This document shows, one piece after another, positions 3,182-56,106 of a DNA stretch of 64,000 nucleotides (within the stretch, counting starts at the first letter, position 1; the number at the start of each line of letters is the position of its first letter). The translations under genes were made by a program, and so were the position numbers. The notes below the pieces were generated by a model. That model saw only the letters and a program-made list of their open reading frames with translations. It searched no databases and was not told the origin of the DNA. The stretch is from a virus. The DNA is taken from IMG/VR virus record IMGVR_UViG_3300031857_000076, positions 27,626-91,625 of that record; one strand, written 5' to 3'.

Positions 3182-3768
3182 TAGTAGTTTGGCTCTTCGC
3201 AGAGGATTCTGCTGACTTCCTCTTTGATTTTTTTGATCATGCGGTGTTTAGCAATGTAAACTGTGCCACAGTTCACTTTGTATTTCTTCATCAACTGATC
3301 ATTATTTAGTTGGTTAAAATGCATATCGCAAAAGATCATATAGTCTTTGCTCTTGTGAACTTTGCCAAGATTTTTCAAAGCTTGAACAAAGAGTTTTTGC
3401 TGATAATTATTCTCAAGTTTTGCATCAAGGTCTTGATTCTCGTCTGGCTGCATTTCCATGAGAAGATCGTCGCCAGTTGTAACATGCTTGTGCTGACGTT
3501 GATTGCGGCGAATAATGTCAACCATTCTCCACTTGGCAAATGTTGTGACCCAAGAATAAATGTTTCCCTTTGACGAGTCGAACTTATTTTCGCGAAAGTA
3601 ATTCGCCATTGAAATGAAAACCTCTTGAACAACATCATCCACATCTTGTGATGGAAGTTTGTATGAGTGGGCCAATGTTTTTAAATACTCATTAAATTGT
3701 TCAAAAAATGCATTCCAGCTTTGGCTGTTATTCCAATCGGAGAGTTGACGCTCTTGTAGTTCGCTCAT
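3181..3768 (-). CDS. ECF-like RNA polymerase sigma factor
   Basis: SWNAFF...DVDDVVQEVF...FDSSKGNIYSWV...MVDIIRR region 2; C-terminal region-4-like TVYIAKHRM. Confidence 0.85.
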   Translation of the reverse strand: MSELQERQLSDWNNSQSWNAFFEQFNEYLKTLAHSYKLPSQDVDDVVQEVFISMANYFRENKFDSSKGNIYSWVTTFAKWRMVDIIRRNQRQHKHVTTGDDLLMEMQPDENQDLDAKLENNYQQKLFVQALKNLGKVHKSKDYMIFCDMHFNQLNNDQLMKKYKVNCGTVYIAKHRMIKKIKEEVSRILCEEPNY

Positions 3769-5919: not shown

Positions 5920-6588
5920 TTAATAGGTATATTTGAATGTGTCAATGTCTTTTTCAAAGATTTTTTCAACTATCTTTTTTGTATTGGAATTGTAATAGTC
6001 TTTATAATCTGATCTTTTGCTTGCGTTTTCGTGCGGAATATCTGGATTAATGTGTTTGATTTCGCAAAGATCAAGCATTTCTTTAAAATCATTTTTAATA
6101 TTTTCGAAACGAAGAATAAAATTAGGCTGAAATGCGCCTTCGAACCACTCAACTTGTTGATGAGTAGCAATAAAATCTTTTGTATTATTTGCGTAATTTT
6201 CACTCATAATTTCGCAAAAATCTTCGAAAGATGCGTCATTTGATCTTTGATAAAGATTGCCTAGTTTTTTTTCTTTGGCATACTGAAATAAGGAAACTGT
6301 ACGATCAAATGGATTTCTAACTACAGAAAAAGACATGTAATTGTGAACCATTGAACCAAAAATTTGATAAATTTCGTTTGGTTTAACGTGCGTAGTCGAG
6401 ACTCGTTGATTATATGGGTTTCTTTTAAAGAAAACATCATGAAAGGTTTTTTCATGTTTTTTAATCAAATTAAGATCGCCAAGGTGAGAATAGATAGAAG
6501 TGCTGGCGTTTTTAGGAACACGAATAAAAATCATGCTCCAAATCCATTTATGCTTGCATGGAGAAAATTCCATCATGGCTTCTTCCAA
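5920..6588 (-). CDS. sulfotransferase family 2 (carbohydrate sulfotransferase-like)
   Basis: FIRVPKNASTS (5'-PSB), VRNPFDRTVS (3'-PB), RFEN, D...FKY. Confidence 0.85.
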   Translation of the reverse strand: MEEAMMEFSPCKHKWIWSMIFIRVPKNASTSIYSHLGDLNLIKKHEKTFHDVFFKRNPYNQRVSTTHVKPNEIYQIFGSMVHNYMSFSVVRNPFDRTVSLFQYAKEKKLGNLYQRSNDASFEDFCEIMSENYANNTKDFIATHQQVEWFEGAFQPNFILRFENIKNDFKEMLDLCEIKHINPDIPHENASKRSDYKDYYNSNTKKIVEKIFEKDIDTFKYTY

Positions 6589-7091: not shown

Positions 7092-7602
7092 AATATGCGA
7101 AGTCTTCTATGGTTTTAAATTTAAAAAGTTTTTGGGCAATTGCAATGAATTGTCTTTTTTTATGTTTTCTGCGCACGTTTCCAGCTATATATTTTACATT
7201 ATATTTGGCCTTAATCAACTGAAAAATTCCAAAAGCTGATTGTTGAAAAAGGTTCCAATTAAAATATCTCGAAGCAGCAAAAACAAATTCGCATGTGTGT
7301 TGTGGTTTGATGATTTGTTCTAGTTCTTTTGGAATTTCAAGTGTTTTTAAGCCAATATCAAAAGATATGAATCCAATAAAGCGATTGTCTTGCAATACAT
7401 AGAATATTTTCGTTTGATCAATTAGGTATTTAAAATGTTCGTCGTATTTGGTTTTTTGCTCAGAAAGAGTTTTGTATTTGAAGTCTAATGGCCTAGAGCG
7501 ATTGAAGAATTCCAAATAAACAAGCAGCAGTTTTTGCCTTTCGTCCTCACTTCCTAAAAATTCGTGTAATTTATAGTTTGAACCGTTATTATTTTTAGTC
7601 AT
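7078..7602 (-). CDS. hypothetical protein, possible GNAT fold
   Basis: FIGFISFD / CEFVFAA strands; start uncertain. Confidence 0.45.
   Translation of the reverse strand: MTKNNNGSNYKLHEFLGSEDERQKLLLVYLEFFNRSRPLDFKYKTLSEQKTKYDEHFKYLIDQTKIFYVLQDNRFIGFISFDIGLKTLEIPKELEQIIKPQHTCEFVFAASRYFNWNLFQQSAFGIFQLIKAKYNVKYIAGNVRRKHKKRQFIAIAQKLFKFKTIEDFAYYEIP
7564..7569 (+). promoter_or_regulatory. GTGTAA putative phage (late) promoter element upstream of tail operon
   Basis: Same hexamer precedes many gene starts in the window. Confidence 0.45.
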
Positions 7603-8617
7603 GCCCATTAACAACAAAGTTTCTAAAGACTTACTTGATTTAGAGCCAACAGCCGTTTTAGAGTTTTACAAAATCTATTACGATACGGTTAATGAGCCAG
7701 ACTCTTTCTTCCCGTTCCATCCATGCTCTAATGGATTACAAGGCAAGATTGTGTTGAATAACATTGCTTATGTGCCTTTGGCAGTTGAAGTTGAGGATTT
7801 TGAAACAAATATTTTCAATCGAATCAGTCGTCCAAAGATTAGAATCAGCAATGAACAGTTGGTAATTAGTCAGATTTTGCGCCGAAAAAACGATTTTAAA
7901 TTCGCAAAACTAGAAAGAATTAAAATTTTTGTTAAATACATTGACGATGTAAATTTTGAAGGAGGCATTAATCCTTATGGAGTTGCAGACCCAAATTCTG
8001 AAATTTCTCGCGACTCTTATGTAATTTCTCAAAAGACACAAGAAAACAAGTCTCTTGTGGAGTTTGAATTGACTGCTCCATTTGACTTGGAAAACTTTTC
8101 CATCCCTGGAAGATTGGTGATGGGAAGATACTGTTATTGGCAGTATCGCGGATTGGGATGTCACTATTTTGGTGCTCCAGTTTGCCAAGAAGATGACACG
8201 CCATTTACTTATGTTCCAACTGGCAGCTTTAACTTTCAAAGCAGTAGTAATGAGTGGACCTATAATATAACCTACAATCCAGGAATGATTGTTTATGTTT
8301 CTACTCCGAAAGACCCGTTTAGAACTTGGTATGTTTGCACACAAACGCATGTAGCAACAGAAAACAACATGCCTGGCCTTGATGACGCTCCTTGGGAAAA
8401 AGATGGCTGTTCCAAGTCTATTGGAGCTTGCAAAAAGCGGTTTTATAATTCCACCCTATCTTATAGCGGTATTTCTGGCTCTCAAACGGTTACTGGCTCC
8501 GTTTATAATCCTGTTCCTAGCGCTCAAACAGCTAGTTTAGGCGCATTTTATCTGCCATTTGGGGGCTTTCCAGCCACAGACAATTATCAATATGGACAAT
8601 CCTATCGTCAAAAATAA
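7601..8617 (+). CDS. lambda gpL-like minor tail tip protein
   Basis: VEFELTAPFD, CYWQYRGLGC, GCSKSIGACKKRF, LPFGGFP; four Cys of the gpL Fe-S site. Confidence 0.9.
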   Translation: MPINNKVSKDLLDLEPTAVLEFYKIYYDTVNEPDSFFPFHPCSNGLQGKIVLNNIAYVPLAVEVEDFETNIFNRISRPKIRISNEQLVISQILRRKNDFKFAKLERIKIFVKYIDDVNFEGGINPYGVADPNSEISRDSYVISQKTQENKSLVEFELTAPFDLENFSIPGRLVMGRYCYWQYRGLGCHYFGAPVCQEDDTPFTYVPTGSFNFQSSSNEWTYNITYNPGMIVYVSTPKDPFRTWYVCTQTHVATENNMPGLDDAPWEKDGCSKSIGACKKRFYNSTLSYSGISGSQTVTGSVYNPVPSAQTASLGAFYLPFGGFPATDNYQYGQSYRQK

Positions 8618-8996
8618 AAGCTTTAAAAAAATTCTGGAGTCTGTTCGTGAGCATTGTGATAGATATTTCTCGTTAGAGTGCTGCGGTTTTGTTGGCAAAA
8701 ATGGCAAAGACTATATAGTGCAGTTTGTTAATAATCGCTCACCAAATCCAAAACAGTTTTTTTGTGTTGATCCTTTGGACTATTTGAGGTTCAAAAACGA
8801 AAACGAATTTATTTCATTGATTCACTCTCACCCTGATGGAGACGAGTCTTTTTCAGAAATGGACCAAGCAAATTCAGAGGCTACTTGTTTGCCGTCCATT
8901 ATTTACTCACTCCAAACTAAGAAATTTGCAATTTATGAGCCAAAAGAGCATGAAGTTGATGTAAATACTCTTAATAAGGTAAAAGGCTTCTTATGA
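8592..8996 (+). CDS. JAB/MPN domain tail assembly protein (gpK-like, no NlpC/P60 domain)
   Basis: ECCG, IHSHPDG...S..D JAMM motif; position between gpL and gpI. Confidence 0.88.
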   Translation: MDNPIVKNKSFKKILESVREHCDRYFSLECCGFVGKNGKDYIVQFVNNRSPNPKQFFCVDPLDYLRFKNENEFISLIHSHPDGDESFSEMDQANSEATCLPSIIYSLQTKKFAIYEPKEHEVDVNTLNKVKGFL

Positions 8997-9601
8997 CAGA
9001 AATTCATCTACATGGTATTTTAGGCAAAAAATATGGGCGATTGCATAGATTTGCAATCAAAGAACCTAGAGATGTGGTTCGAGCTTTAGAAGCTAATTAT
9101 GAAAATTTCTCAAAAGACCTCAAAGACTTATTAAAGAAAAAAATTGTTTACTCAATTGTTGCTGACAACCAGTGGGTTCAAGGCAACTCTTTTACAGAGA
9201 TTAAAAAAATCAAGAAAATTGATTTTGTGCCAACAATTATTGGTTCAACAGTAGGGCAAATTATTATGTTAGTTATTGCTGTGGCTTCTGCGGTATATTC
9301 CTATGTTCAAGCTGGCAAGCAACAATATCCTCAAATTCCTGGAGCAGAAGGAATTTCATCAGCTAATTCTAAATCATTAGCTTTCTCCAATCGAGAAAAT
9401 ATCACTGAGCAAGGCAATCCAGTTCCTCTTGTTTATGGGCGATTAAAAGTTGGCTCTTTTGTTGTTCAAAGCTCCATTAAATCTTTCCCGCTCACACTCA
9501 CTTTAACAGACGAATTTTTAAATTCAACAGCTAAAAAATCTGCCAACCAAGTTGCTATTATTGATAGTGCCGATTCGGTTTTGAGCAATCCAAAATACTA
9601 A
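8993..9601 (+). CDS. lambda gpI-like tail assembly protein (ubiquitin-like N-domain)
   Basis: IHLHGILGKKYG, FVPTIIG, hydrophobic stretch, QGNPVPLVYG...VGS. Confidence 0.88.
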   Translation: MTEIHLHGILGKKYGRLHRFAIKEPRDVVRALEANYENFSKDLKDLLKKKIVYSIVADNQWVQGNSFTEIKKIKKIDFVPTIIGSTVGQIIMLVIAVASAVYSYVQAGKQQYPQIPGAEGISSANSKSLAFSNRENITEQGNPVPLVYGRLKVGSFVVQSSIKSFPLTLTLTDEFLNSTAKKSANQVAIIDSADSVLSNPKY

Positions 9602-9602
9602 A

Positions 9603-12600
9603 ATGAGCCATTTTTCTAAAAAATATATCAAAGGAATTGTTGGTGCGGGTGGAGGTCCAGATGCTCCACCACCACCTACTCCACCAACATTTAAGCCGCC
9701 AAAGTTAGGAGACTTGCAAGCTGTTTCTTCTTATGACTATGTAGAAAATATTGATCTTATTTCAGACGGAGAAATTGATGGTTTTGTTGGGCAGAATGGC
9801 GAATATGTTGACAATATCCGTTTATTTGAAAGTATTTATTTGGAAGATGTTATTGTGCGTCAGCCAGTTGACAGCGATTCATTTAACACTATTGCGGACC
9901 TTGACTTGAGTTTTATTGGCTCCGCTTTTCAAAATAAGTTCTACTCTAATTCGGAGTTTATTGAAACTTTAATAACAGATTTGAGTGATTTAAGTGGTTC
10001 AAACACTCAAGGTGTTTCATTTTCTGTTTTATCTGGCAAAGATAGAATAGCTGATTCTATTTTTCAATCAATTCAAAATATTGAGAATGTGTATGCTGGT
10101 ATTCAACCATCGGCTCAAAATGATTCGATTTTTAAACAATTGAGATTATTAAGAGCACAGTTTAATTTCACTTCTCAGAGAGAGGTTTTAGCTTATCTTT
10201 TACCAGATTTTCCAGAATATTTCGCCACTGATTATCCGTTTTTGGCATTAAAAATTTCTTTAAATGTTGATCTTGCTCCTGATGGATACGTTCACTCCAT
10301 TGATGATTTGATTATCTTGTCTAATGACATTTATAATCAGATATATTATGATTTAGAGTCAACAGAATTGCAAAATAAAAAGATTTTATCTCCTAAAAAG
10401 AAAATTAACACATGTTTTTTTCAAAGTGCTGGTGGCAATACGTCAGCAAAAGGGGATTTTTATGTTTTCTTCTATCAAAGAAATAATTATGTTTTAAAAA
10501 ATGGAGTTGATGCAATAATTAATTTCATCAAATCTGTTAAGATTATCAATACCACGGCTAAATTTAATTATGCTAACGCGACCTTTGAAACAAGAGACGG
10601 AGCTGATCTTCAAAAACCATTAAGTTTATTCAATAAAACTTATTTAGATACTCAATTTAACTCTAAACTTAGGGGTCCGTTTGAGCAAGGCAAGCCTGTA
10701 TTAACGCTGTTAAATAAAGAATACACTGAGGTTGATTCAAGATACAACGAATCATCTGTTATGGCGAGTTCTGGATTAATATCTGATTCTGAATTCAAAC
10801 AAGGAACAACTGAATTCTTTTCAATTCAAGAACTAAGTGAATTAAAAACTTTGCATACTGATTTATTTAAAAATGAATCTGAATTTGTTAGTTTAACAAA
10901 ACAACTAATGAGCGGTAATACTTTATCCCTTGGCCTTTTAAATCCTAATCCAGAATTTAGAAGTAGTTCTTGGTCCATTGAATCATTGAATAAAACTGGA
11001 AATATCATTCAGATGGTATTAGCTGGCAAGGTAAGTTATCGCTTTTATTCAAATGATATAAAAATTACGCTTTCTTTTGATAAATCAACAAAATGTTTTA
11101 AAAGAAACATTGTTAAAAACAATGGTGATCAGTTTAATATATTAGCCACGGATACTGTTTACATAACGGATTATCAAAAAGATTTGATAAATGCAAATAA
11201 TTTTGATTTTACTTTAATATATGAATATTCTTCTTTTAGTGGTCAAGTATTTTTAACATCCTACTCTCCTTCAACTGGTTGGCCTTTATTTTTCAGAATC
11301 GCTTTTCGCGCTTTATTAGAAGGCGCTTACGCCAACGAAGGAAGTGATGATTTTAGAAAAGTTAATGGTGCTATTGAGAGCTATACTAATTGGAATAAAA
11401 ATTATGTCAAGTATTTATCGGAACCTGGATCAAGAATTACGCATATAGTTTTAAATCCCAATGTTGATCAAGTATTTATTTCTTTGCAGATCACAAGTTT
11501 ACAAGATACGGCTCAACAAAATTTACTTTTATTGAAGTCAGATGGCACAAAAGAAGACGTTCAAGCTGGCACAAGCATTCCTTCCGTAATAGAATTTAGA
11601 ATTGAAACTGGATACCAAACGCTAACTGGAGAAGAAGAGTTGTTTGTTTCAAGATTGTTCCAAGTTAGAGGCTTGGTTAATTCGCCAGTATCAATTGATG
11701 TTGGTCGAGAAGAAAACGCTTCAGTAATTCAACAATATAGCCGCTTTATTCTAGGAAGTCAGAATATTGCACAGCCAATTTCTCTTCCTCCCCATGTAGT
11801 TAATAAAAATAGATTTGTAAGAGCCTATAGAACAACTGCGGAATCTTACTCTTCACTTATCCGCCGTGAAATATATTTGCAAAAAATCACCGAAATTATT
11901 AATGTTCCATTTTCTTATCCATACTCAACCATTTGTGGTTTAAAATTAGATGCTAGAACATTCACTTCCATTCCTGCTCGCAGTTATGACGCGAGATTTA
12001 AGAAAGTTTTCGTCCCAAGCAATTATTTTCCACTCAAGGCAAATGGTCAAGACAAAAGATATATTGCTGGAAAGAATTTGGCTTCATTCAATAGCCTAAG
12101 CAATTCTAGTGATGAAAAAACAATTTATAAAGGCAATTGGGATGGAACATTTAAACTAGCTTGGACCGATAATCCTGTTTGGGTTCTTTTTGATATTCTA
12201 ATCAATCGTAGATATGGATTAGGCAACTTTATTTCGCCATCTGAGGTTAACTATTGGGAGCTTTATAAGATTGGCCGCTATTGTGATGGTGTTGATATTA
12301 ATGGCGTATTTGTTGGCGTTCCTGCTGCTGATGGCGGACTAGAGCCAAGATATGCCTTTAATGGCGTAATTGCTGATAAAACCAATGTGTTTGAATCATT
12401 GAAGTCTCTAGTGGCTTGCTTTAGAGGCAACATGTTTTACACAAACTCAGAAATCAACTTCACAAACGATAGGCTCAAGCCAATCATGGGCTTCTTCAAT
12501 AATTCGAATGTGAAAGATGGTATGTTCAACTACTCAAATGAGCGTCGAGATTTACAATACAATGTTATTGAAGTGACTTATTTAGATCGCGACGACTTGT

Positions 12601-13769
12601 TCAAACAGAAAATTGAATATGTGGAAGACCCTGATGACATTAAAACTCGCGGCATTTTAAGAACCACAGCGCAAACTTTTGGCATTACTAGCCGCGCTCA
12701 CGCCAAACGCCTTGGTGAACACATCATCTACTCCACCATTAATGAAGACGAAAATGTGGCCTTTGTTGGCAACTTGGAAACTCTCTTATGCAGGCCAGGA
12801 GATTTGATCGCAATCAATGACAATGTTAAAACCCTTAAAAATCATGTGGGGCGAGTTTTAGATGTTGATACAATTAATAACTCTATATATACTAATGTTT
12901 CTCTTAAATCGTCTGATTTTAGCTCTTCTGGACTAACGGGAGAAATTTCTGTTCTGATTCCAACTGGCAAATATCAGTCTAATGACTTTTATGATTTGGC
13001 CAAGTCTCCAACAAAGTTAAGTGTTTCTGAACTCTATCAAACAGATGTTCCGATCAGAGTGACGCTTCAAGCAACTGGAACTCAAGTCATTGACTCTTCT
13101 CCAGCATTGGATTATGGTTCCAAGTTCTTTATTGATACTGGATGTTCTGGCTATCCATTGTTGCAGCAAGTTCGCGCTGGAACACCTTGCTCCATTACAA
13201 TCGCTAACACTAAACAGCAGGTTTATAAAATTCAATCAATCAAAGAACTAAACCTCAATGAATATGAGGTCATTGCTTCAAAGTTTGACACTGGTAAATT
13301 TGCAGAGATTGAACAAGGCGAAACTGGCTTGATGCAAGATTTCTTCTCCGCCTTCCCACCAGCTAGAAATACAGCAGTGAGCGAAGGCCAAGCAGAATTG
13401 CTGCAAAATAAATATGTGTATGACTTGGGATTCCCAAGAATTTTAACATTAAGAACTGGCAATTGGGACATGCAAGCAGATACAGCAGATTTGTCTGGAA
13501 GCTGGTTGCCTGTTAATGGCGCAAACGCCTACAATGTTGAATTAATTACTCCAAAATTTAAAAGCATCAAACAAACTGTTACTGGTAACTCTGCTATTTT
13601 TGAAGATCAAACAGAAGTTGGAACCTTTACTTTAAAAGTAACTGCCAGAAACACTGGTTCATATCCAAACCCAATATCAGCAACCGCATCCAGATCACTA
13701 TCTGTTGTTTCTTATGTGGCTCCAGTAAGAACAAACGGAATCATTCAAGGATTCGTAATTAATAAATAA
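9603..13769 (+). CDS. lambda gpJ-like central tail tip / host specificity protein
   Basis: DLISDGEIDG, YPY...GLKLDA, WDGTFKLAWTDNPVW, RYGLG, YCD, EPRY, RPGDLI; C-terminal FN3-like domain. Confidence 0.92.
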   Translation: MSHFSKKYIKGIVGAGGGPDAPPPPTPPTFKPPKLGDLQAVSSYDYVENIDLISDGEIDGFVGQNGEYVDNIRLFESIYLEDVIVRQPVDSDSFNTIADLDLSFIGSAFQNKFYSNSEFIETLITDLSDLSGSNTQGVSFSVLSGKDRIADSIFQSIQNIENVYAGIQPSAQNDSIFKQLRLLRAQFNFTSQREVLAYLLPDFPEYFATDYPFLALKISLNVDLAPDGYVHSIDDLIILSNDIYNQIYYDLESTELQNKKILSPKKKINTCFFQSAGGNTSAKGDFYVFFYQRNNYVLKNGVDAIINFIKSVKIINTTAKFNYANATFETRDGADLQKPLSLFNKTYLDTQFNSKLRGPFEQGKPVLTLLNKEYTEVDSRYNESSVMASSGLISDSEFKQGTTEFFSIQELSELKTLHTDLFKNESEFVSLTKQLMSGNTLSLGLLNPNPEFRSSSWSIESLNKTGNIIQMVLAGKVSYRFYSNDIKITLSFDKSTKCFKRNIVKNNGDQFNILATDTVYITDYQKDLINANNFDFTLIYEYSSFSGQVFLTSYSPSTGWPLFFRIAFRALLEGAYANEGSDDFRKVNGAIESYTNWNKNYVKYLSEPGSRITHIVLNPNVDQVFISLQITSLQDTAQQNLLLLKSDGTKEDVQAGTSIPSVIEFRIETGYQTLTGEEELFVSRLFQVRGLVNSPVSIDVGREENASVIQQYSRFILGSQNIAQPISLPPHVVNKNRFVRAYRTTAESYSSLIRREIYLQKITEIINVPFSYPYSTICGLKLDARTFTSIPARSYDARFKKVFVPSNYFPLKANGQDKRYIAGKNLASFNSLSNSSDEKTIYKGNWDGTFKLAWTDNPVWVLFDILINRRYGLGNFISPSEVNYWELYKIGRYCDGVDINGVFVGVPAADGGLEPRYAFNGVIADKTNVFESLKSLVACFRGNMFYTNSEINFTNDRLKPIMGFFNNSNVKDGMFNYSNERRDLQYNVIEVTYLDRDDLFKQKIEYVEDPDDIKTRGILRTTAQTFGITSRAHAKRLGEHIIYSTINEDENVAFVGNLETLLCRPGDLIAINDNVKTLKNHVGRVLDVDTINNSIYTNVSLKSSDFSSSGLTGEISVLIPTGKYQSNDFYDLAKSPTKLSVSELYQTDVPIRVTLQATGTQVIDSSPALDYGSKFFIDTGCSGYPLLQQVRAGTPCSITIANTKQQVYKIQSIKELNLNEYEVIASKFDTGKFAEIEQGETGLMQDFFSAFPPARNTAVSEGQAELLQNKYVYDLGFPRILTLRTGNWDMQADTADLSGSWLPVNGANAYNVELITPKFKSIKQTVTGNSAIFEDQTEVGTFTLKVTARNTGSYPNPISATASRSLSVVSYVAPVRTNGIIQGFVINK

Positions 13770-13773
13770 CTCT

Positions 13774-16764
13774 ATGCCTTCTTATTTTCATACTGGTCAA
13801 GATTGTAGTGGTAATACAGTAGGTCTTTATACTGAAAATCCCACATGGGTTTCAACTGATATTGCTTATTCTGACTCCGCTTTATCTTCGTTTTTTAATG
13901 GGGAATTTAATTCTTTATTTTATTCTGACGGTATATCATATCCTTACGATTGTCCATCTCCGCCTCCCTCACCAACGCCTTCACCGCCTTCACCGCCGTC
14001 TCCGCCTACACCGCCTCCTACACCGCCTCCTACACCGCCTCCTACACCGCCTCCTACACCGCCACCTCCTTCGCCTACACCGCCGCCAATTATTCCGCCA
14101 GCGCCTCCAGCGCCACCGTTTCCAGTTGGTTTTTATCCATCTGCAACGTCCAAAGGCACGGGAGAGAGTTTCTATTATTCAAGATTTAAAGACTCTTCTT
14201 TCAATTTTCAATATAGAGATATTTATGATAATGAAATCACAAGCGATTTACAGTTAGCGCAAAATCAAGGCTTCTCCAACTATAATTTCTCGTATAAAGC
14301 TTCTTTGCTTTCCACTGGAGCTACGCCTGCCACTGCTCAATCGCATTTAATTGCCTCAAATTTTGCAACAAATCAAACAAGCTTATCTTTTAATTTTCCT
14401 CAAACTAAAAATGCTGAACTTTTTGGACTGCCTTCTGGAGAAAGATATTATTCATTACTATTCAACATCAAAAATCAAGGTGCTGAAAACTCTGTATTAG
14501 CAACAGTTTACCATTTGCCAGCTAATATTGATTTTATTAGTGTTGAAGATTATTTCTCATCTCAAACTTCTGGAGTTCTTAATAATGTTTTAACAACATG
14601 GAATTATGTTGGAGACGGGGTTTTGACGGGGTTTGATGTCACTGGTAAAACTAATTCATTTATTACTGGATTGACCTCTGGCCTTACTCAAGTTTTAAAT
14701 TGGAGTTATAATCCGACTGGAGATGTTTCTGGTTTTGCTATCACTGGCTACATCAATAGCGGAGATTTTTACAGTGTTTATTCTGGAGGTAACTTAGTGC
14801 CTTCGAGCGAATACGAAATTAAGTTCACCCCAACACCACAAGTTAATTTTTATAGTTTGCCTAATTTATTTGCCCTTAATATTGTTGAATCAACAGGAAA
14901 CACAGGATTCTTATCAACGAACTATAGAGCGTTTATTGGTGGCTTTGAAGAGCTTTCGGGAGATTATTCTATTGATGGAAATAATGATCAATTAATTTTT
15001 AATGTCCCTCCAGCAAGCGGTTCAACAATTGTCATTCAAGAGCTTACAGGTGTCACACAATTATTAAATGCTCCCTTGAGTGGCCAAATTAATTTTACAG
15101 TTAACTTCGATGCCGATGCTGTCGAAAATTATATTACAAAAGGTATTGATGTTTATACTGGTGCTAATACTGGAACGCCATATTCATTATCTGGTTTCGC
15201 ATTATTAAAAACAGTCAATTTCTTGGAAAACGCCTCTTCACAAAGCTTTTCAATTTTTGCCAATGAAGTGCCAAACAATCAGTTTGTTTACTATAAATTT
15301 GTGGGTCAAGATGATTTTGGAACTGGCTACGTTTATGGCGCAGAAACGAGTGGGTATTTGTTCTCTCCACCAGAACAATTATTTTATACAAATGGTATTC
15401 CTCCTACCTTATCTTTTGATCGGAGAACGGGTAATTTCTTTAGTGGCTATAATTCACCTGCTAATGTTCCAAATTCAGATGGAGCACTTATTTACCAAAC
15501 GGGAAGCTCTGGACAAAATCTTTATTTAGTCAAGTCTGGACAATGGAAAACTATTCTGCCCTACGAGGAAATTACTGGAAACATTGATCAAACATATTTA
15601 AAAAAATCTGATGGCCTATATATTAGTGGTCGCGCAATTACTGGATACAATCAATCAATTACTGGTTTACAATTTTCTGGTACAACAACAAAAACTCTTT
15701 TCTTATATCCTAGAAATGGGCAAACAATTTCTGGTTCATTTACCGATAATGCTTCTATTGGTGATGTAGTTTATGCAACTGGAAACCAAACCATCAGTGG
15801 AGAAAAAACTTTTATCGGAAAGCTTATTACTGAAACTGGGTTTTTTGGTAAAAATAATTCTTTTGGTAGTTATGTTCAAAATTACTATCCAACAATTGCT
15901 GGTGGTTCTGGAAACTCTGGAAATTCTCGCTATGGTTTGATTGGTGGCGGTCAAGGTAATGTATTAAATACTGGTTCTCATAATACAATTGCTGGTGGAT
16001 GGAACAATAAAACAGATGATGGAAGTTGGCAATCTATCTTGGGCGGGGTAGGTAATATCACTTCTGGTTCTTTTACCACAATTGGCGGTGGTCAAGATAA
16101 TTTAGCAAGTAATAGTTACGCTTCTGTTTTAGGGGGCTATTATAATACTTCTAGTGGATATTCAGCGTCTTGTTTGGGTGGAGAGAATAATAGTGCTGGA
16201 GGTTTGTGTTCAGTTATTTTGGCAGGTATAGGCTGTAGCACAACTCCAAATGCGGCATATTCAATTGCTGGTGGATACTACTCTAAAGCTGATCGTTATG
16301 GTTCAAGGGCTTACAGTTCAGATAAATTTAGTGCCGATGGAGATTGTCAAAATATTCAGTTTGTTTTAAACGCTACTACTTATGATTCTGGAGTTTCAGT
16401 TTTATCTATGGATGGTGCAGGTTTATATTTTAATATTTTAGAAAACCAAACCGATAAAATCATGATGCTTACAGTTAAAGTTCTTGGTGTAGATGAAGAC
16501 GCTAATCTTTCTCAATATATGAGAAAAGCAGTCATTAGCACCCTTGCATCCAATACAGGCTATCAAAGAATCCATCATATTGAATCAATAGGAACCGATT
16601 TAGAAAACGCTGGTAAAGCGGTCTTTTCTGTAACAGGCAGTTTTAATACAGGAAGCTATAGTGATGTTTTTTGTATTTTTGGCAGCGGAGTTAGCGGCCA
16701 AAATACTAGATGGGCAGCTAGTATAGATGCTATTGAATTAATTAAACCAGCCGCTTATCCATAA
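13774..16764 (+). CDS. tail fibre / adhesin-like virion protein
   Basis: Follows gpJ; Pro-rich linker, TGNQTISGEKTF fibre motif, ~14-aa IxGGxxN beta-roll repeats. Confidence 0.75.
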   Translation: MPSYFHTGQDCSGNTVGLYTENPTWVSTDIAYSDSALSSFFNGEFNSLFYSDGISYPYDCPSPPPSPTPSPPSPPSPPTPPPTPPPTPPPTPPPTPPPPSPTPPPIIPPAPPAPPFPVGFYPSATSKGTGESFYYSRFKDSSFNFQYRDIYDNEITSDLQLAQNQGFSNYNFSYKASLLSTGATPATAQSHLIASNFATNQTSLSFNFPQTKNAELFGLPSGERYYSLLFNIKNQGAENSVLATVYHLPANIDFISVEDYFSSQTSGVLNNVLTTWNYVGDGVLTGFDVTGKTNSFITGLTSGLTQVLNWSYNPTGDVSGFAITGYINSGDFYSVYSGGNLVPSSEYEIKFTPTPQVNFYSLPNLFALNIVESTGNTGFLSTNYRAFIGGFEELSGDYSIDGNNDQLIFNVPPASGSTIVIQELTGVTQLLNAPLSGQINFTVNFDADAVENYITKGIDVYTGANTGTPYSLSGFALLKTVNFLENASSQSFSIFANEVPNNQFVYYKFVGQDDFGTGYVYGAETSGYLFSPPEQLFYTNGIPPTLSFDRRTGNFFSGYNSPANVPNSDGALIYQTGSSGQNLYLVKSGQWKTILPYEEITGNIDQTYLKKSDGLYISGRAITGYNQSITGLQFSGTTTKTLFLYPRNGQTISGSFTDNASIGDVVYATGNQTISGEKTFIGKLITETGFFGKNNSFGSYVQNYYPTIAGGSGNSGNSRYGLIGGGQGNVLNTGSHNTIAGGWNNKTDDGSWQSILGGVGNITSGSFTTIGGGQDNLASNSYASVLGGYYNTSSGYSASCLGGENNSAGGLCSVILAGIGCSTTPNAAYSIAGGYYSKADRYGSRAYSSDKFSADGDCQNIQFVLNATTYDSGVSVLSMDGAGLYFNILENQTDKIMMLTVKVLGVDEDANLSQYMRKAVISTLASNTGYQRIHHIESIGTDLENAGKAVFSVTGSFNTGSYSDVFCIFGSGVSGQNTRWAASIDAIELIKPAAYP
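14011..14058 (+). repeat. 4 perfect 12-bp tandem repeats (CCGCCTCCTACA, encoding PPPT) within a Pro-rich tract (~13954-14118)
   Basis: Directly visible. Confidence 0.95.
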
Positions 16765-16765
16765 A

Positions 16766-17953
16766 ATGATAAAATTGATTCCTTTTGCGAATTTAAACTT
16801 AAAAGAAATTAATAAAGCCTCTTTAAGAGTATGGTATAGCGATCATGATTATGAAGATTTATTTTTAGACCCTAGCAAAATTAGGCAAGATCATTTTCAA
16901 ATGCCCAAGAAAGAATTTGACAAATGTGCATTTTTGGTATTAATCGTAGAATACAAAGATGGGTCAATTCAAAAATTTAGAAGAAGCGATAAATATGAAT
17001 GGCTTAATGGCCAAAAACCCAAGAACATTCAGTTCTATTTAAGAAAGAATGAAAACTCTTTTTATGATGATAGCGATTTTGGCAAAAAAACCGTTTTAAA
17101 AATACTAGACGCTCGCTTCTCAAAAATTCAAAATTGCTCAAAAGAAACGGTTGGAACTAAAAATTTAATATACTATGCTGTTGGCGGAGATTTAAATTAT
17201 CTAAACTTATTAGACACTTCCATTAATTCGATTGTTGATTTAGCAAGCGAAAAGAGTTTTGAGTTTTTATTTATATGCCCCGAATCTTGGCAATCTAAAA
17301 TTAGAAATTTAGACGGATTAAGGGGTATTAACTATCATTTTCACACAGTAGATGACTCAACTGACGGCGTTGAAATCTCAAAAAATAAAACGAAGATTTA
17401 TGATTTTGATAAAGTTAATGAATTCGCAAAAATTCTTTTTATTGATAGCGATGTGATTGCTATTAAAAATATCAATGAAGTATTTGATCTTGAAATCAAG
17501 AACGGCAAACTATACACAGCATATAGCGAAAAAATTATTAAATTAGATTCTCACTTGGGTCAATATCACGGCATAGTGAAAGACGATGTATTCTATAAGA
17601 GAATATGTGAAAATCAACAAATGCCATTTAATGCTGGTCAGTTTTTATTCATGAACTGCGAGTTGATGAAAGAGCATTTTTATAATGTCAATTGGCTGAT
17701 GAAATCGTGGCCAAGTGAATACTTTTTTGAGCAAGCATTCATGAATTACTATTTTTGCAACTATAATTTAACCGAATATGTTACTTTTAATAGTAAGGTA
17801 AAAATTCATTCCGCCATAGATCAAAACAAATCTAGGTACAATCCTGAAATAAAAGACTCAGATGTTTTGATACATTTCATCGGTCCTTGTTTGGAGCCAA
17901 TCGCAAAATCAAACTTCATCAAAGAATATTCTCATGCCTATTTGTCAAGATAA
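16766..17953 (+). CDS. GT-A glycosyltransferase (GT8-like) with N-terminal extension
   Basis: ILFIDSDV DxD motif, FNAGQFL, EQAFMN, IHFIG. Confidence 0.8.
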   Translation: MIKLIPFANLNLKEINKASLRVWYSDHDYEDLFLDPSKIRQDHFQMPKKEFDKCAFLVLIVEYKDGSIQKFRRSDKYEWLNGQKPKNIQFYLRKNENSFYDDSDFGKKTVLKILDARFSKIQNCSKETVGTKNLIYYAVGGDLNYLNLLDTSINSIVDLASEKSFEFLFICPESWQSKIRNLDGLRGINYHFHTVDDSTDGVEISKNKTKIYDFDKVNEFAKILFIDSDVIAIKNINEVFDLEIKNGKLYTAYSEKIIKLDSHLGQYHGIVKDDVFYKRICENQQMPFNAGQFLFMNCELMKEHFYNVNWLMKSWPSEYFFEQAFMNYYFCNYNLTEYVTFNSKVKIHSAIDQNKSRYNPEIKDSDVLIHFIGPCLEPIAKSNFIKEYSHAYLSR

Positions 17954-18524
17954 AAAATTAGCTTTTATACATATTCCGAAAACTGCTGGAACCACAATTG
18001 AAACAGCTTTGGGCATGAAAACTATTAATAATTTCTATAATGAATATAAGTTCAAACACTATTGCGTTTGTCCGCAGCACTTGACATGCGAAGAACTATC
18101 ACATGAAATTGACTTAGCCGATCTTGAACTATTTACAATTGTTCGAAACCCCTATGATAGATTGGTTTCTGAATATAACTATATTCAGAATAACGAATGG
18201 CTATTCAAACTCAAACACGCAACATTTAAAGAATTTATTAAACTAATTCCAAACTTGGACCAAGTAGAGAGAAAATACATTTTTGATGGTCACTTAGAGA
18301 CTCAGAGTTCCTTTGTTAAAGGTTATGAAGACAGAATCAAAATCTTTCATTACGAGAAAATAAATGAATGTTTTGACTATTTAAATTCTAAATATGGTCC
18401 GCTAGAATTTGGACTCGAAAGAAAACCAATTGAGAAAAAAAATATTAAATGGACGAAAGAACTAAAAAAAATAGTTCAATCAGTTTACGCAGAAGACTTT
18501 GATAGATTTAATTATAAAATGTAA
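17934..18524 (+). CDS. sulfotransferase family 2
   Basis: FIHIPKTAGTT, VRNPYDRLVSEY, H..TQ, EDFDRFNY. Confidence 0.88.
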   Translation: MPICQDKKLAFIHIPKTAGTTIETALGMKTINNFYNEYKFKHYCVCPQHLTCEELSHEIDLADLELFTIVRNPYDRLVSEYNYIQNNEWLFKLKHATFKEFIKLIPNLDQVERKYIFDGHLETQSSFVKGYEDRIKIFHYEKINECFDYLNSKYGPLEFGLERKPIEKKNIKWTKELKKIVQSVYAEDFDRFNYKM

Positions 18525-21216: not shown

Positions 21217-21609
21217 TTAATCTCCTTTTTCAATGCGAATAGAATCGCTATCCTCATGGTGAGTGGAAAACTCAATAATTTCTGAATTTTCCAAAGCTAA
21301 TAGGCGATGCCGCAAACCAACTGGAACATGAAAAATATCTCCTTCATAAAGCTCTTGCATGATAGCTGCATTTATATCGTTGCCAGTTCCATAATAAAGA
21401 ACAACAGAGCCTTTGTTCACATAGAAGGTTTCAGTTTTCTTTTCGTGGTAATGCCAAGAAAGCTTTTTTCCTTTAAAAAGAAAAAGAAGTTTGCCGCAAT
21501 AATCATCGCGATTTACTAACCATTTTTCATATCCCCATCCTTTAGGGACATAGTGTGAAGTTTTGCATCCTTCTTTAATGAAATTGCAATTGAGTTCGGT
21601 CTTTTCCAT
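21217..21609 (-). CDS. cupin, mannose-6-phosphate isomerase-like
   Basis: PKGWGYE, LSWHYHEKKTETF, HRL, EFST. Confidence 0.8.
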   Translation of the reverse strand: MEKTELNCNFIKEGCKTSHYVPKGWGYEKWLVNRDDYCGKLLFLFKGKKLSWHYHEKKTETFYVNKGSVVLYYGTGNDINAAIMQELYEGDIFHVPVGLRHRLLALENSEIIEFSTHHEDSDSIRIEKGD

Positions 21610-23464
21610 TATGTTGATAGGTAAAATGTCTTTGTGTTGTGATGAAAGGTAAGAACGCTAGTTCAAAATATCCTTTGTGCTCACCTTGCCCTTCCAAGAA
21701 AAGAAGATTGTCAAAGATTGGCGAATATGGTAAAATTTTGTGAACGCATGGATGCTCATCTACAATCTCAAAAAACTGTGGCAGCGTAATAAAGTAAATA
21801 TGATGGTCTGGATAAAGTTCTTGCAAATTTTCTAGCAACGCATTCACCATTAATACGTCACCAGCAGATTGAGGCATAACAACAGCAATTCTTTTTCCTT
21901 CATCATCTTTATCCAAAACATCTCCAATATCAATTGTTTTGGGTTCAATTTTAGCAGCAGTATTTTTAAAATGATTTAAAACTTGCTCTCTATTAAGGTC
22001 TGATTTGAGCCTTTCAATCCAATGCAAGCAGCCTTGATGATTGCGATCAACTGTTTCTCCAAGAATATTCTTGTATAAGTCAATGATCCATTCACAATTA
22101 TCTTCAATATTTGGAGGTTGATAGTTGGGATTTTTAACTCTCTCTTGAATGCTCCAATCTTCAACAAAAGGCGCATTATCAAACATCTCTTCTAATTGCT
22201 TGCAAACAACCTCAATAGAGCAATGATTGATTACAAAATCTCTGGCCTTTTTGCCAATTTCAGCACGTTTTTCAGGCTTCATATTGTAAACTTTTTCTAA
22301 TTGTTTACAAATGCTAAATGCACTGGTTGATGCCTTAATAAATTGAGTTCCTGGCTCACGATACTCTGACCAATCCAAGGGCAAGCCTCCACTCTCATCT
22401 GTGCAGTAGTCTTCGCCGCAAGAATAATTTGTAACAAGCGTGATGAGTTCAGCGAGTTTGGCTTCTTGAACAGGAATCTCTTGTCCTCCGCTTGTGAATG
22501 GATGACAATAAACATCCATAAGATTATAAACCTCATTCAATTGAGCCTCATTGACTCCATGAACAATATTGGTTGTGGAAACGCTTTTTTGAGCTTTGCA
22601 GTATGGACAGTTCAAGTCTTGGCCCTGATATGGCTTAATTTCGTATTGGCGGCAATTCTTGCAGAAGTATGTTGTTAAAACATCAGAATTGTCAATATTC
22701 TTTTCTCTCAAGAGTCTTGGAATATCCCATCCCTCCATCCAGTGAGTATGAAGCAATAGCTTGGGTTTTGATTCTGGATTTTTTGCTTTGAATTCACAAA
22801 AACCATCTAAAAGATTTGGGACGCTTTTTCTAAGCTGATTGCGAAACACAAACCCAATAATAAAGTTATCTTTGATATTGAATTTTTTTCTCAGGTCGTT
22901 TTTAATTTTTGGACCAAGGTTGTAGAACTGGTTGACATCGAGAGTTCCAGGGAGTGTTCTCACATGGCCATATCCCATCTCTTTTAAAGCCTTTTCTGCG
23001 AACGAGGCCCATACAAGATAGTTCTTGACCTTTGGCGCTGCATCAACAGCGTCAGGAAGGATTGGAAGCGAATCTAGCGTGGTCCAAATGATTGAGGTGA
23101 TGTGATTCCACCAAGGCTTGTCACAAAAACCATTAAAGGCCCAAATATCTTCAATGCCAAGATAAACATCTGGCTTTAATTTTTCAATAGCATTGTCAAT
23201 GCCGTAAGCACCATAATGGGCCGCTCTTTCTTTTCCAGCGTCTCCCTTAATTTGTGCCATGACATTTGGATTTGGCATGGAACCATAGCACTGCCAAGGT
23301 TGAAACTTACAATCTGGCGCATCCCAAGGCAAGCCATTAGCGAATTCTATGAGTTCATATTTGCCAGTTTCATGCAGTTTGCGTAAAATGTTTTTATTAT
23401 TTTTCCCGAAGCCAGTAAAGAGTCGCGAAAAATTAGTATGAAATAGAATTCTTTTTTTTCTCAT
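21575..23464 (-). CDS. multidomain glycosyltransferase: GT4 + Zn ribbon + GT9 N-terminal domain
   Basis: TGFG, RNQLRK, YNLMD...GGQEIPVQEA; CKNC/CPYC; C-terminal IAVVMPQSAGDVL...LYPD. Confidence 0.8.
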   Translation of the reverse strand: MRKKRILFHTNFSRLFTGFGKNNKNILRKLHETGKYELIEFANGLPWDAPDCKFQPWQCYGSMPNPNVMAQIKGDAGKERAAHYGAYGIDNAIEKLKPDVYLGIEDIWAFNGFCDKPWWNHITSIIWTTLDSLPILPDAVDAAPKVKNYLVWASFAEKALKEMGYGHVRTLPGTLDVNQFYNLGPKIKNDLRKKFNIKDNFIIGFVFRNQLRKSVPNLLDGFCEFKAKNPESKPKLLLHTHWMEGWDIPRLLREKNIDNSDVLTTYFCKNCRQYEIKPYQGQDLNCPYCKAQKSVSTTNIVHGVNEAQLNEVYNLMDVYCHPFTSGGQEIPVQEAKLAELITLVTNYSCGEDYCTDESGGLPLDWSEYREPGTQFIKASTSAFSICKQLEKVYNMKPEKRAEIGKKARDFVINHCSIEVVCKQLEEMFDNAPFVEDWSIQERVKNPNYQPPNIEDNCEWIIDLYKNILGETVDRNHQGCLHWIERLKSDLNREQVLNHFKNTAAKIEPKTIDIGDVLDKDDEGKRIAVVMPQSAGDVLMVNALLENLQELYPDHHIYFITLPQFFEIVDEHPCVHKILPYSPIFDNLLFLEGQGEHKGYFELAFLPFITTQRHFTYQHNGKDRTQLQFH

Positions 23465-23465
23465 G

Positions 23466-23924
23466 TTATTCTGAGGCTTGGGCTTTTGATTCAAAAATTT
23501 TAACTAGGCAGGTTTCAAGAAACACTCTTAGAGCTTCTGCTTCTGAAAGCTCTACACCCATGCCAAATTTTTGATTGCCGTTGCGAGAAACAGAGAACGA
23601 GAAGGCATCTGCGCCATCTTTCTTTTTGTATCGAGTCCAAGAGATTTGAGTTTTATTTTCTTCAAATGAGTGAAAAGCTTTCCATTCGCCATAAGTGCGA
23701 ATTGCATGAATCAATCCACCAATCTCATTTTCGTTGAGCTTAATGGCTATGGTCTTTTCAGGGTTCTTTTGGTTGCCAGAAAATGATCCATTTTTTGTTT
23801 GCTCATTCCAAGAGAATTGTTGAATACCGTTTACATAAACGGTTGGTTGTCCTTTGGAAGATAGTTGGAAAGAAAAGGCGCAACCAGTATTTTTGCTATT
23901 TGGCTTGTAGAAGGCGAGATTCAT
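23466..23924 (-). CDS. hypothetical protein, possible Whirly/PC4-like ssDNA-binding fold
   Basis: Twice-repeated beta-strands followed by L...E helix. Confidence 0.45.
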   Translation of the reverse strand: MNLAFYKPNSKNTGCAFSFQLSSKGQPTVYVNGIQQFSWNEQTKNGSFSGNQKNPEKTIAIKLNENEIGGLIHAIRTYGEWKAFHSFEENKTQISWTRYKKKDGADAFSFSVSRNGNQKFGMGVELSEAEALRVFLETCLVKIFESKAQASE

Positions 23925-23938
23925 ATAGGATAGTAAAT

Positions 23939-24556
23939 TTACTGTTTCAAAAATCTATGATATAAAGCAATAGATTGATAATGAACAGAAGTAAATTTAT
24001 CCTTCATTTCTTTGGACCAAGACTCTCCAGTATATGTTGTGGCCCAAAGTTTTTTATCTCTTTCAATTTTTAAGTCAAATTGTTTTTCTACAAAATCCTG
24101 CGCTTCATGGTAACGATCAAAAACAAATACTTTATCAATAGCTAGTTCACCATTAAGGTGAGTGTATTCGTATTGATTAATGTAGTGATTTAAATTCTGA
24201 AATGAGTTCTTTTCATCTGATAAGATGAAGTGCTCCAATGAAGGAATCTTCATGGACGATTTCATCTGGTTATATAGGCTAGTAACCTGATCAAATGGAT
24301 TTCTTAATACAGTAAATTTTAAATAAGAATTAATCTGTAAGAATTTGTGATACTCTGAAATATAACTATGAGGGTGTCCGCGAGGCGTGTTTTTTTCTAT
24401 GCAACACATTGCGCCTCTGATGGTGAATATCTTATAAGAGTCTTCGTTTAAGTTGGAGCTTTCTGGAAGATGTTTTTTACAAATAGCAAATTCTAAACTG
24501 GAACCTCCAGTTTTAGGAATATGCACAAAGATGGTTTTATAGACCGAAAAAAACAT
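23939..24556 (-). CDS. sulfotransferase family 2
   Basis: FVHIPKTGGSSLE, LRNPFDQVTSLY. Confidence 0.82.
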   Translation of the reverse strand: MFFSVYKTIFVHIPKTGGSSLEFAICKKHLPESSNLNEDSYKIFTIRGAMCCIEKNTPRGHPHSYISEYHKFLQINSYLKFTVLRNPFDQVTSLYNQMKSSMKIPSLEHFILSDEKNSFQNLNHYINQYEYTHLNGELAIDKVFVFDRYHEAQDFVEKQFDLKIERDKKLWATTYTGESWSKEMKDKFTSVHYQSIALYHRFLKQ

Positions 24557-25116
24557 TATTCTAGTGTGAAGTGACAATACATGTTGGCATAATAATTGCC
24601 GTTAAACGATGTTTTACGTCCATGAAGACAGAGAGCAGATTCATAATAAACACATTCTCCAGGTTCTATTAAAACTTGATGCTCAACTCCAGAATGGTCC
24701 ACAATGTCAAATAGCCAAGGTTGCCCATCTAATGCCACGCTCATGTTTACACTAATATGATGCGTTTCTTTTTTATCCACATGCATTCCTAAAGTGGCCC
24801 CATTCTTATAGAAGCGAATGCCGTAAATGATTCCTTTGGGGTTTAGTTTTGCACCCGACCAAGATGAAAGAGCATCATACATTTCTAGTATAACTTGTTT
24901 TTTAAGTTCTGGAAATCTCTGCAAGCAAAGTAGGTCTGTGGCAACTTCAAATTGACTTGATTTAATCCACCCTTTTAAGTCTGGCTTTAGGGTATCAGAA
25001 TATTCTGGAACTCGCTCATTAATATGATTGGCCAAAACCTCTTGAATCATTTGCCATGATTTTTCTGGAATTTTTGTTTTATAAAAACCCTTATCAGTAA
25101 ACTTAGGGATGTTCAT
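24556..25116 (-). CDS. 2OG-Fe(II) oxygenase, prolyl-hydroxylase-like
   Basis: YGIRFY...MHVD (HxD), LHGR distal His, YANMYCHF. Confidence 0.8.
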   Translation of the reverse strand: MNIPKFTDKGFYKTKIPEKSWQMIQEVLANHINERVPEYSDTLKPDLKGWIKSSQFEVATDLLCLQRFPELKKQVILEMYDALSSWSGAKLNPKGIIYGIRFYKNGATLGMHVDKKETHHISVNMSVALDGQPWLFDIVDHSGVEHQVLIEPGECVYYESALCLHGRKTSFNGNYYANMYCHFTLE

Positions 25117-33196: not shown

Positions 33197-33229
33197 TTAG
33201 AAAATTCTTTATTGTTTCGTATTATCCTA

Positions 33230-55874: not shown

Positions 55875-55889
55875 ATATAGAATTACACT

Positions 55890-56105: not shown

Positions 56106-56106
56106 A

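Follow-up and report, generated by a model that had tools for sequence, protein, structure and literature searches.

The stretch of DNA analysed here, hereafter the window, comprises 64,000 nucleotides (nt; positions 27,626 to 91,625) of the IMG/VR virus record IMGVR_UViG_3300031857_000076. The record is 91.6 kb long and about 67% complete (CheckV), and it belongs to a large siphovirus-like phage, uncultured and aquatic, with a GC content of about 37%. We investigated a string of genes in which a tail operon runs through a putative tail-fibre gene directly into a GT8 glycosyltransferase and a predicted sulfotransferase (ST) that would use 3'-phosphoadenosine 5'-phosphosulfate (PAPS). The features of this string, counted from the first letter of the window and with models from AlphaFold2 (AF2) scored by predicted local distance difference test (pLDDT), are as follows.

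7564-7569, plus strand: GTGTAA motif, candidate promoter element for the string from gpL to the sulfotransferase, 37 nt before the gpL start
7601-8617, plus strand: gpL (Phage_tail_L, E 2.7e-32)
8559-8996, plus strand: gpK (JAB)
8993-9601, plus strand: gpI (phrog_32)
9603-13769, plus strand: gpJ, the central fibre (phrog_31, E 2e-97)
13774-16764, plus strand: side or distal tail-fibre protein of 996 aa, after a 4-nt gap from gpJ
13939-14118, plus strand: extensin-like tract rich in (S/T)-Pro, fibre residues ~56-115
15871-16278, plus strand: Gly-rich beta-roll repeats of the fibre shaft, residues ~700-835, which match many tail-fibre proteins
16291-16761, plus strand: terminal beta-sandwich domain of the fibre (~158 aa, residues 840-996), the conserved partner of the GT8
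16747-16761, plus strand: C-terminal tail P-A-A-Y-P followed by the stop, consensus P-[PAS]-[ASV]-Y-P, a proposed acceptor or docking site
16766-17953, plus strand: GT8 glycosyltransferase (PF01501), after a 1-nt gap from the fibre open reading frame (ORF)
16766-17140, plus strand: small N-terminal beta domain of the GT8, residues 1 to ~125, AF2 pLDDT 82-96
17141-17953, plus strand: catalytic GT-A domain of the GT8, predicted by family to be of the retaining type
17934-18524, plus strand: PAPS-type sulfotransferase ST2 (PF03567 and phrog_3347), overlapping the 3' end of the GT8 by 20 nt

The seven genes from gpL to ST2 are separated by overlaps or by gaps of 1-4 nt only in the ORF map, and a convergent minus-strand block begins at 18525, directly past ST2. 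The gene order, the 1-nt gap, the 20-nt overlap and the convergent block had all been described in a first-pass annotation made from the letters alone, and each of them was recovered from the ORFs and the sequence. Such packing fits a single late transcription unit from gpL to ST2. Up to 29482, the GTGTAA copy at 7564 is the only one on the plus strand. This motif is rarer in the window than expected by chance (15 copies vs 22.5), and several copies stand just upstream of operon or gene starts (7564, 29482, 32147, 45083 on the minus strand, 47657, 51603, and 55883 on the minus strand), which is weak evidence for a candidate promoter element. A scan for sigma-70 promoters and terminators gave counts equal to the shuffled expectation and was uninformative. 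A sigma-70-like gene is located at 3181-3768 on the minus strand.

The identification of the 996-aa ORF as a tail fibre is reasonable but indirect. It is a credible fibre because it follows gpJ, contains the Gly-rich beta-roll repeats, has relatives that carry the name "tail fiber domain-containing protein" in source annotations, and resembles tailspikes and fibres weakly in fold. According to the AF2 model, the repeats form short regular strands, the strands of the terminal domain reach a pLDDT of 80-95, and the last six residues are unstructured past the final strand. The fold matches of the terminal domain were all weak and included phage tailspikes and fibres, T4 gp9, TNF-like lectins, and carbohydrate-binding modules (CBMs).

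The GT8 matched PF01501 over residues 139-374 at 43.4 bits (cut-off 24.3), and a search of the whole record recovered this match as well. The motifs D227-S-D229 (within F-I-D-S-D) and H370-F-x-x-P were intact, and D227, D229, H370 and K381 were invariant across 30 homologues. Its AF2 model (pLDDT 90.7) matched LARGE1, WbbM, XXYLT1, UGGT, glycogenin and LgtC with a Foldseek probability of 1.0; identity to any solved GT8 was only 11-17%. By profile, motifs and modelled GT-A fold, the protein is assigned to CAZy family GT8 (Pfam Glyco_transf_8), sharing the GT-A fold, the DxD motif and the C-terminal His motif with glycogenin, XXYLT1 and LARGE1 and also with LgtC, RfaI/J and WbbM. Unlike the solved enzymes, it carries an additional N-terminal beta domain of ~125 aa that is found only in viruses and gave no informative structural match (best non-self TM score 0.45).

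ST2 matched PF03567 at 48.6 bits (cut-off 22) and phrog_3347 with E 1.4e-19, with a length of 196 aa vs 252 positions in the model. It possesses a 5'-phosphosulfate-binding (5'-PSB) loop, H-I-P-K16-T-A-G-T-T, and a 3'-phosphate-binding (3'-PB) motif, R71-N-P73-Y-D-R-L-V-S79, and K16, R71, P73 and S79 were invariant in 16 homologues. The profile and these motifs identify it as a predicted PAPS-dependent sulfotransferase of the Sulfotransfer_2 family. Among Pfam families it matches the carbohydrate-type Sulfotransfer_2 best, its closest sequences of solved structure belong to cytosolic SULTs and heparan-sulfate 2-O/6-O enzymes (E 3e-7 to 5e-5), and no TPST was matched among the solved sequences. 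Neither GT8 nor ST2 has a signal peptide or a membrane or hydrophobic segment, so both are predicted to act in the cytoplasm, where virions assemble. No APS kinase gene was found in the record.

To investigate the conservation of this arrangement, 92 full-length homologues of the GT8, N-terminal domain included, were collected, and an alignment of 30 of them (A1) led to 45 loci in IMG/VR. The ORFs of these loci were called and compared with all proteins of the window and with an iterated ST profile. Removal of the near-identical L001 and ten duplicates left 34 non-redundant loci. A same-strand gene of the ST family lay directly downstream of the GT8 in 26 of the 34, spaced by -74 to +76 nt and in most cases overlapping it; in L013 the ST was located two genes further downstream. 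The adjacency persisted down to ~31% GT8 identity. Moreover, the pairwise distances of GT8 and ST were correlated across 25 lineages (Mantel r 0.67), a value reached by none of 2000 permutations, which argues that the two genes move and diverge as a unit. This conserved, co-diverging GT8-ST pair is, at the level of sequence, a new observation. The literature searched contained no published description of a sulfated phage virion or of a fibre-linked GT8-sulfotransferase cassette.

The contexts of the pair were assigned by clustering of neighbours and by PHROG and Pfam annotation. Fibre-like neighbours were present at 12 loci, including a collagen-like fibre (L017) and a Laminin_G protein resembling a baseplate wedge (L020). 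In six lineages of myoviruses the pair adjoined a 1000-aa tail sheath, in six T4-like lineages it lay between a gene resembling a baseplate or fibre connector and neck genes (Ad2, Hc2), and in three further lineages the neighbours were weakly similar to tail proteins of the window phage. Thus, the backbones carrying the pair included lambda-like L-K-I-J siphoviruses (the window and L006), sheath-bearing myoviruses, T4-like phages, and jumbo contigs of 225-243 kb. The two GT8 homologues whose surroundings were plainly non-structural (L044 and L048) were short and distant and had no ST. The first-pass annotation had proposed synteny of fibre, GT8 and sulfotransferase as the check on its reading, and the linkage proved to be kept well beyond close relatives. 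The conserved linkage, and the occurrence of the pair in the tail modules of unrelated phages, support a functional tie of both enzymes to tail or fibre proteins.

In the clade of the window phage, the specific partner of the GT8 was the fibre tip. We used a profile of residues 840-996 to find the terminal domain at the extreme C-terminus of the ORF before the GT8. In five lineages (the window with L001, L006, L007, L008 and L066) a fibre ORF with the same 158-aa domain at its end is followed after 1-6 nt by the GT8; this domain is 29-63% identical among these lineages. The homology of the window fibre to these upstream ORFs covers its last 300 residues to the final residue and does not involve the Pro-rich tract. 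For three of the lineages the upstream ORF and the GT8 are as follows.

L006: upstream ORF of 1598 aa, GT8 58% identical to that of the window
L007 (225-kb contig): upstream ORF of 635 aa, GT8 41% identical
L008: upstream ORF of 510 aa, GT8 34% identical

In L006 the sequence corresponding to the 996-aa fibre is split into a proximal part of 543 aa and the distal fibre of 1598 aa.

The fibres of these lineages end in PAAYP (window), PPSYP (L006), PPAYP (L007), PPVYP (L008) and PSAYP (L066), and L001 also has the invariant P, Y and P. In the window, L006, L007 and L008 these three residues are kept at a domain identity of only 29-55%. The codons of the tail prolines and of the middle positions differ between lineages, with synonymous differences. 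Only 4 of 531 background genes of the loci end in YP, and three of the four are these fibres. The tail was absent from the copies of the domain that do not abut a GT8 (L064, L009 and L013), one of which, in L009, lies 2 kb upstream of the GT8. When metagenomes were scanned with the fibre domain as seed, three new loci proved informative, L064, L065 and L066. L064 and L065 share gpJ with the window, and their terminal domain is 72% identical to the window's; there the fibre ends in ...AIEMLIM, without a tail, and is followed by another fibre gene rather than by a GT8, the L064 contig stopping 0.9 kb later. Among database homologues, P0097-P0101, P0105 and P0109 share the tail, whereas other members of the domain family stop right after the last strand. 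The tail thus covaries in these sequences with direct GT8 adjacency, being present in five lineages and absent from three domain copies. YP-type tails as a general trait of the neighbours of GT8-ST pairs were considered and rejected, the tail being confined to the fibre-domain family. Other endings recur in ORFs directly upstream of the GT8, namely S-C-[PS]-T in L009:8828-9964, L010:8470-9801 and L012:9306-9851, and -PYN in L021:7527-9488 and L042:8175-9797; these may be lineage-specific acceptor tails.

The GT8 subfamily was also sought in cellular genomes. In a pattern-seeded scan of 185,579 prokaryotic species (one genome each), nothing exceeded 26% identity, and the matches covered the catalytic core only. 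None of the records among 50,697 genomes of cultured phages encodes the GT8, and the sole ESM Atlas cluster with its N-terminal domain is 100% viral. The absence of close relatives from the prokaryotic genomes scanned and the viral Atlas cluster argue against a recently captured host lipopolysaccharide (LPS) gene and against lysogenic conversion. Lysogenic conversion of the gtrABC/oac type was therefore rejected.

Based on these results, we hypothesized that the distal fibre domain with its P-x-x-Y-P tail, the phage-restricted GT8 and the PAPS-dependent ST form one mobile cassette that modifies the phage's own tail apparatus, a reading to which we assign a probability of roughly one half. What the enzymes modify, with which donor sugar, in which order and to what benefit is inferred as follows. 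Fibre, GT8 and ST would be transcribed late together with gpL-K-I-J, with their translation coupled. The GT8, using a host UDP-sugar and a metal bound by the DxD motif, would place a hexose-type sugar on the newly made fibre tip in the host cytoplasm; the exposed C-terminal tail with its invariant Tyr would be the best candidate site, and the N-terminal beta domain a possible docking module. The sulfotransferase would then transfer sulfate from host PAPS to the sugar added by the GT8. Each fibre subunit would thereby carry at its tip a sulfated, negatively charged glycan, with possible effects on adsorption, on stability or on evasion of decoys. On other backbones the substrates of the pair would be proteins of the tail, baseplate or fibre whose genes lie beside it.

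Several points weigh against this hypothesis. The linkage does not reveal the acceptor, and modification of a host receptor glycan predicts the same linkage. The fold neighbours of the GT8 include the LPS and O-antigen enzymes LgtC and WbbM as well as enzymes directed at proteins or protein-linked glycans (glycogenin, XXYLT1, LARGE1), and therefore the acceptor cannot be inferred from the fold. Co-transcription with structural genes is not found everywhere, as the cassette of L027 and L045 runs in the opposite direction to the sheath genes that flank it. In L066 (L066:1282-1569, JACCDP010009207.1) the N-terminal domain of the GT8 alone (~82 aa) forms an ORF 1 nt after the PSAYP-tailed fibre; a fibre-like gene of 220 aa stands in place of the deleted catalytic domain and ST, and the tail is retained. 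The cassette is thus dispensable, and L066 represents either decay in progress or an N-terminal domain with its own function. The covariation of tail and GT8 compares about five lineages with three, which is a small sample and partly circular, because a reciprocal scan of IMG/VR with the fibre domain returned only the four seed loci. In L064, a GT8 further downstream, past the end of the contig, is possible. The strong nucleotide conservation of TAT-CCA-TAA at the junction may be due in part to a recombination boundary and not to selection at the protein level. Moreover, the ST family occurs without GT8 in ordinary sugar islands of cultured cyanomyoviruses and of Pelagibacter phage Mosig, and the region past tail-fibre genes is a known hot spot for cargo or receptor-modifying genes (P22 gtr, Sf6 oac, T5 llp).

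A more specific version of the hypothesis concerns the tyrosine. Glycogenin glucosylates tyrosine, and tyrosine is the only invariant hydroxyl residue in the fibre tail. The GT8 might, like glycogenin, attach a sugar to this invariant penultimate Tyr, and the ST might sulfate it, giving a sulfated O-tyrosine glycan at the fibre tip with a role in host recognition. We regard this version as doubtful.

Among the other explanations, the one that survives best is that GT8 and ST alter a host surface glycan (LPS core or O-antigen, capsule, or S-layer) recognised by the fibre tip, thereby blocking superinfection or preventing progeny from sticking to debris; enzyme and tip would be inherited together because their specificities must match. 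Linkage of a receptor-binding-protein gene to a receptor-blocker gene is known from T5 llp-oad and from the P22 tailspike beside gtr. This explanation, which we hold to be possible, predicts the same linkage of fibre tip and enzyme, and it agrees with the presence of LgtC and WbbM among the nearest GT8 folds, with the label "lipopolysaccharide biosynthesis glycosyltransferase" given by JGI to several GT8 homologues, with the opposite orientation of the cassette in L027 and L045, and with a beta-sandwich tip that is weakly lectin/CBM-like, so that the receptor may be a glycan. On the other hand, the GT8 subfamily, unlike genes of the gtr/oac type, is absent from the 185,579 genomes of bacteria and archaea and from the prophages within them. 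The window ORFs scanned did not include an integrase, no flippase or other membrane component accompanies the pair, and no Pfam matches to GtrA, GtrC or an acyltransferase were found nearby. The 3' end of a late tail operon, behind a 1-nt gap, is also a poor place for an early-acting replacement of a surface glycan. Finally, masking of the receptor leaves unexplained why only the domain copies abutting a GT8 have the P-x-x-Y-P tail.

It is unlikely, in our view, that the pair is generic cargo of a hypervariable sugar island in a common insertion hot spot where the tail operon ends, bearing no particular relation to the fibre and with host metabolism, exopolysaccharide or a small molecule as its target. 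The pair does abut a convergent block of sugar genes (GNAT, cupin, GT4-like, ST3) in the window, the ST-family gene of Mosig and ACG-2014f lies in a sugar island near RNR, hli and psbA, and the PHROG class of the ST family is "moron, auxiliary metabolic gene and host takeover". However, what L006-L008 retain along with GT8-ST is the fibre domain and not Gmd, the cupin, GNAT, the GT4-like gene or ST3. Tail modules of four or more unrelated backbones carry the pair, the abutment of 1-6 nt is kept at 34-58% GT8 identity, and the tail covaries with GT8 adjacency. As regards the phage's own DNA as a target, we know of no sulfated DNA glycans. Glycosylation of modified DNA bases by the GT8, with or without the ST, is very improbable and was rejected on genomic context: the window has a dNMP kinase, a dUTPase/dCTP-deaminase-like protein, ThyX and RNR, and DNA-modifying glycosyltransferases are common in phages (PMC12619734), but nearly all loci have GT8-ST in tail modules rather than with nucleotide-metabolism genes, the ORFs scanned included neither a hydroxymethylase nor a TET/JBP protein, and the fold is that of GT8 and not of a known DNA-glycosyltransferase family.

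The window contains further genes related to sugars and sulfation, of which neither ST1 nor ST3 belongs to the conserved cassette.

5920-6588, minus strand: ST1, paralogous sulfotransferase (PF03567 E 4e-18, ST profile E 1e-49), divergent and upstream of gpL
21217-21609: cupin
21575-23494: GT1/4-like protein, sub-threshold match
23939-24577, minus strand: ST3, paralogous sulfotransferase (PF03567 E 2e-4, ST profile E 2e-39), in the convergent sugar block
24556-25116: 2-oxoglutarate (2OG) oxygenase, marginal match (E 0.06)
33212-33496, plus strand: SemiSWEET/PQ-loop membrane protein of 94 aa (E 4.8e-11), just before the GT2-like, GT9-like and Gmd genes
33489-34259: GT2-like protein, sub-threshold match
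34261-34959: GT9-like protein, sub-threshold match
35300-36337: Gmd

A phage-encoded sugar transporter of the SemiSWEET/PQ-loop type is unusual. The two additional sulfotransferases, Gmd, the cupin and SemiSWEET named in the first-pass annotation were all borne out. Its count of about six more glycosyltransferases was overstated, as only three weak, sub-threshold matches were obtained, and its FkbM was not found in the window. The 2OG oxygenase it listed is marginal within the window, and a clear PF13640 copy lies ~2 kb outside. With respect to function, glycosylation and sulfation coupled to the fibre, as it had proposed, remain the leading reading on the strength of synteny, but its elaborations lack support. 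The genes that would supply a deoxyhexose-containing, possibly methylated glycan are those not conserved with the cassette, so that such a glycan is not indicated, and neither a proteoglycan-like coat over the whole virion nor a bait for a polysaccharide-foraging host is supported, no host having been assigned.

The PF13640 2OG-Fe(II) oxygenase outside the window has 297 aa (E 1.2e-14; L052:1426-2319, G000:C1:90425-91318, a numbering in which the window is 25053-89052 on the minus strand). Its family includes prolyl 4-hydroxylases, and the genome that encodes it also encodes a fibre with a ~55-residue (S/T)PPP tract; a separate, lineage-specific modification of the Pro-rich tract by this oxygenase is possible. 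The Pro/Ser/Thr-rich tract as a conserved acceptor was rejected, as it is present only in the window phage and in the 96%-identical L001.

The tail module of the phage is divided into two oppositely oriented blocks (7601-18524 and 54328-63933), ~40 kb apart, with replication and nucleotide genes between them. The minus-strand block at 56-64 kb encodes a putative tape-measure protein, a tube-like protein and a gpM-like protein. A SET-domain protein (53920-54327, plus strand, E 1.4e-9) adjoins a second fibre-like protein, which contains BppL_N (51634-53301), and the block u349, BppL555, u219 and SET is conserved in L066. The replication and nucleotide genes comprise those for RNR, DnaB, primase, ClpB, ThyX, dUTPase and dNMP kinase, as well as a split DnaE whose PHP protein and exonuclease are encoded separately. 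The Pol III alpha pieces are a PHP protein (42941-43687), a DEDD exonuclease (43641-44324) and the catalytic core (45102-47657), and a LAGLIDADG endonuclease gene lies between them on the opposite strand (44287-45072). No tRNA genes were found in the genome. The 655-aa and 510-aa ORFs at L050:9024-13129 (G000:C1) showed none of the Pfam domains DUF1549, DUF1553 and DUF1501 of a PVC-type (planctomycete-type) module at E <= 0.01. There was no close cultured relative, since the matches of terminase and DnaE were all below 35% identity (Firmicutes, actinobacterial and other phages).

To our knowledge, glycosylation of phage virions is known from only a few actinobacteriophages. According to PMC12619734 and PMC11256854, which summarise Freeman et al. 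2023 (Cell Host Microbe 31:1216), glycosyltransferases of mycobacteriophages (Che8, Rita and relatives) put glycans on the C-termini of capsid and tail-tube subunits, and the genes encoding these enzymes are found towards the 3' end of the genome, at a distance from the structural genes (PMC11256854). The system proposed here is similar in that phage-encoded cytoplasmic glycosyltransferases would act on the phage's own structural proteins, and the C-terminal glycans described there parallel the exposed P-x-x-Y-P tail. It differs from the mycobacteriophage system as described there (capsid and tail-tube targets, no sulfotransferase, actinobacterial hosts) by a putative target at the fibre tip and by a GT8 and an ST within the tail operon.

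Cassettes of a receptor-binding protein and accessory genes are well known, such as fibres with the chaperones Tfa or gp38, T5 pb5 with llp, and the P22 tailspike beside gtrABC. As in those cassettes, a distal fibre domain and its downstream genes appear to be swapped together between phages, but the downstream genes here are two transferases and not chaperones, lipoproteins or membrane Gtr proteins. Soluble glycosyltransferases encoded beside a fibrous surface protein that is modified in the cytoplasm before export or assembly are known from the adhesin pairs Aah/AIDA-I and TibC/TibA and from the serine-rich repeat protein (SRRP) enzymes GlyD/GlyE of GT8. The arrangement proposed here resembles them in placing a soluble glycosyltransferase gene beside that of a fibrous protein; those systems are bacterial, belong to GT9 or to other GT8 subfamilies, and lack sulfation, whereas this one is viral and includes an ST. 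ST2 itself is ~30% identical to members of PHROG 3347 ("Galactose-3-O-sulfotransferase") of cyanomyoviruses and Mosig and shares their PAPS motifs. In contrast to these cultured phages, where the gene lies in sugar islands without GT8, ST2 is coupled to a GT8 behind a fibre gene.

The cassette is small, consisting of a fibre fragment and two soluble enzymes, and is directly testable without culturing the phage. If receptor masking were true, it would constitute a new module of matched receptor binder and receptor editor in lytic phages. If the tyrosine version were true, it would provide the first sulfated modification of a virion and the first Tyr-linked phage glycan, on a cassette moving between sipho-, myo- and jumbo phages. 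Modification of the tail apparatus would define a new class of protein-directed GT8 and sulfotransferase enzymes. Post-translational chemistry, and not sequence alone, would then help to set the host range of abundant uncultured aquatic phages, and the sequence of a receptor-binding protein would be insufficient to predict it.

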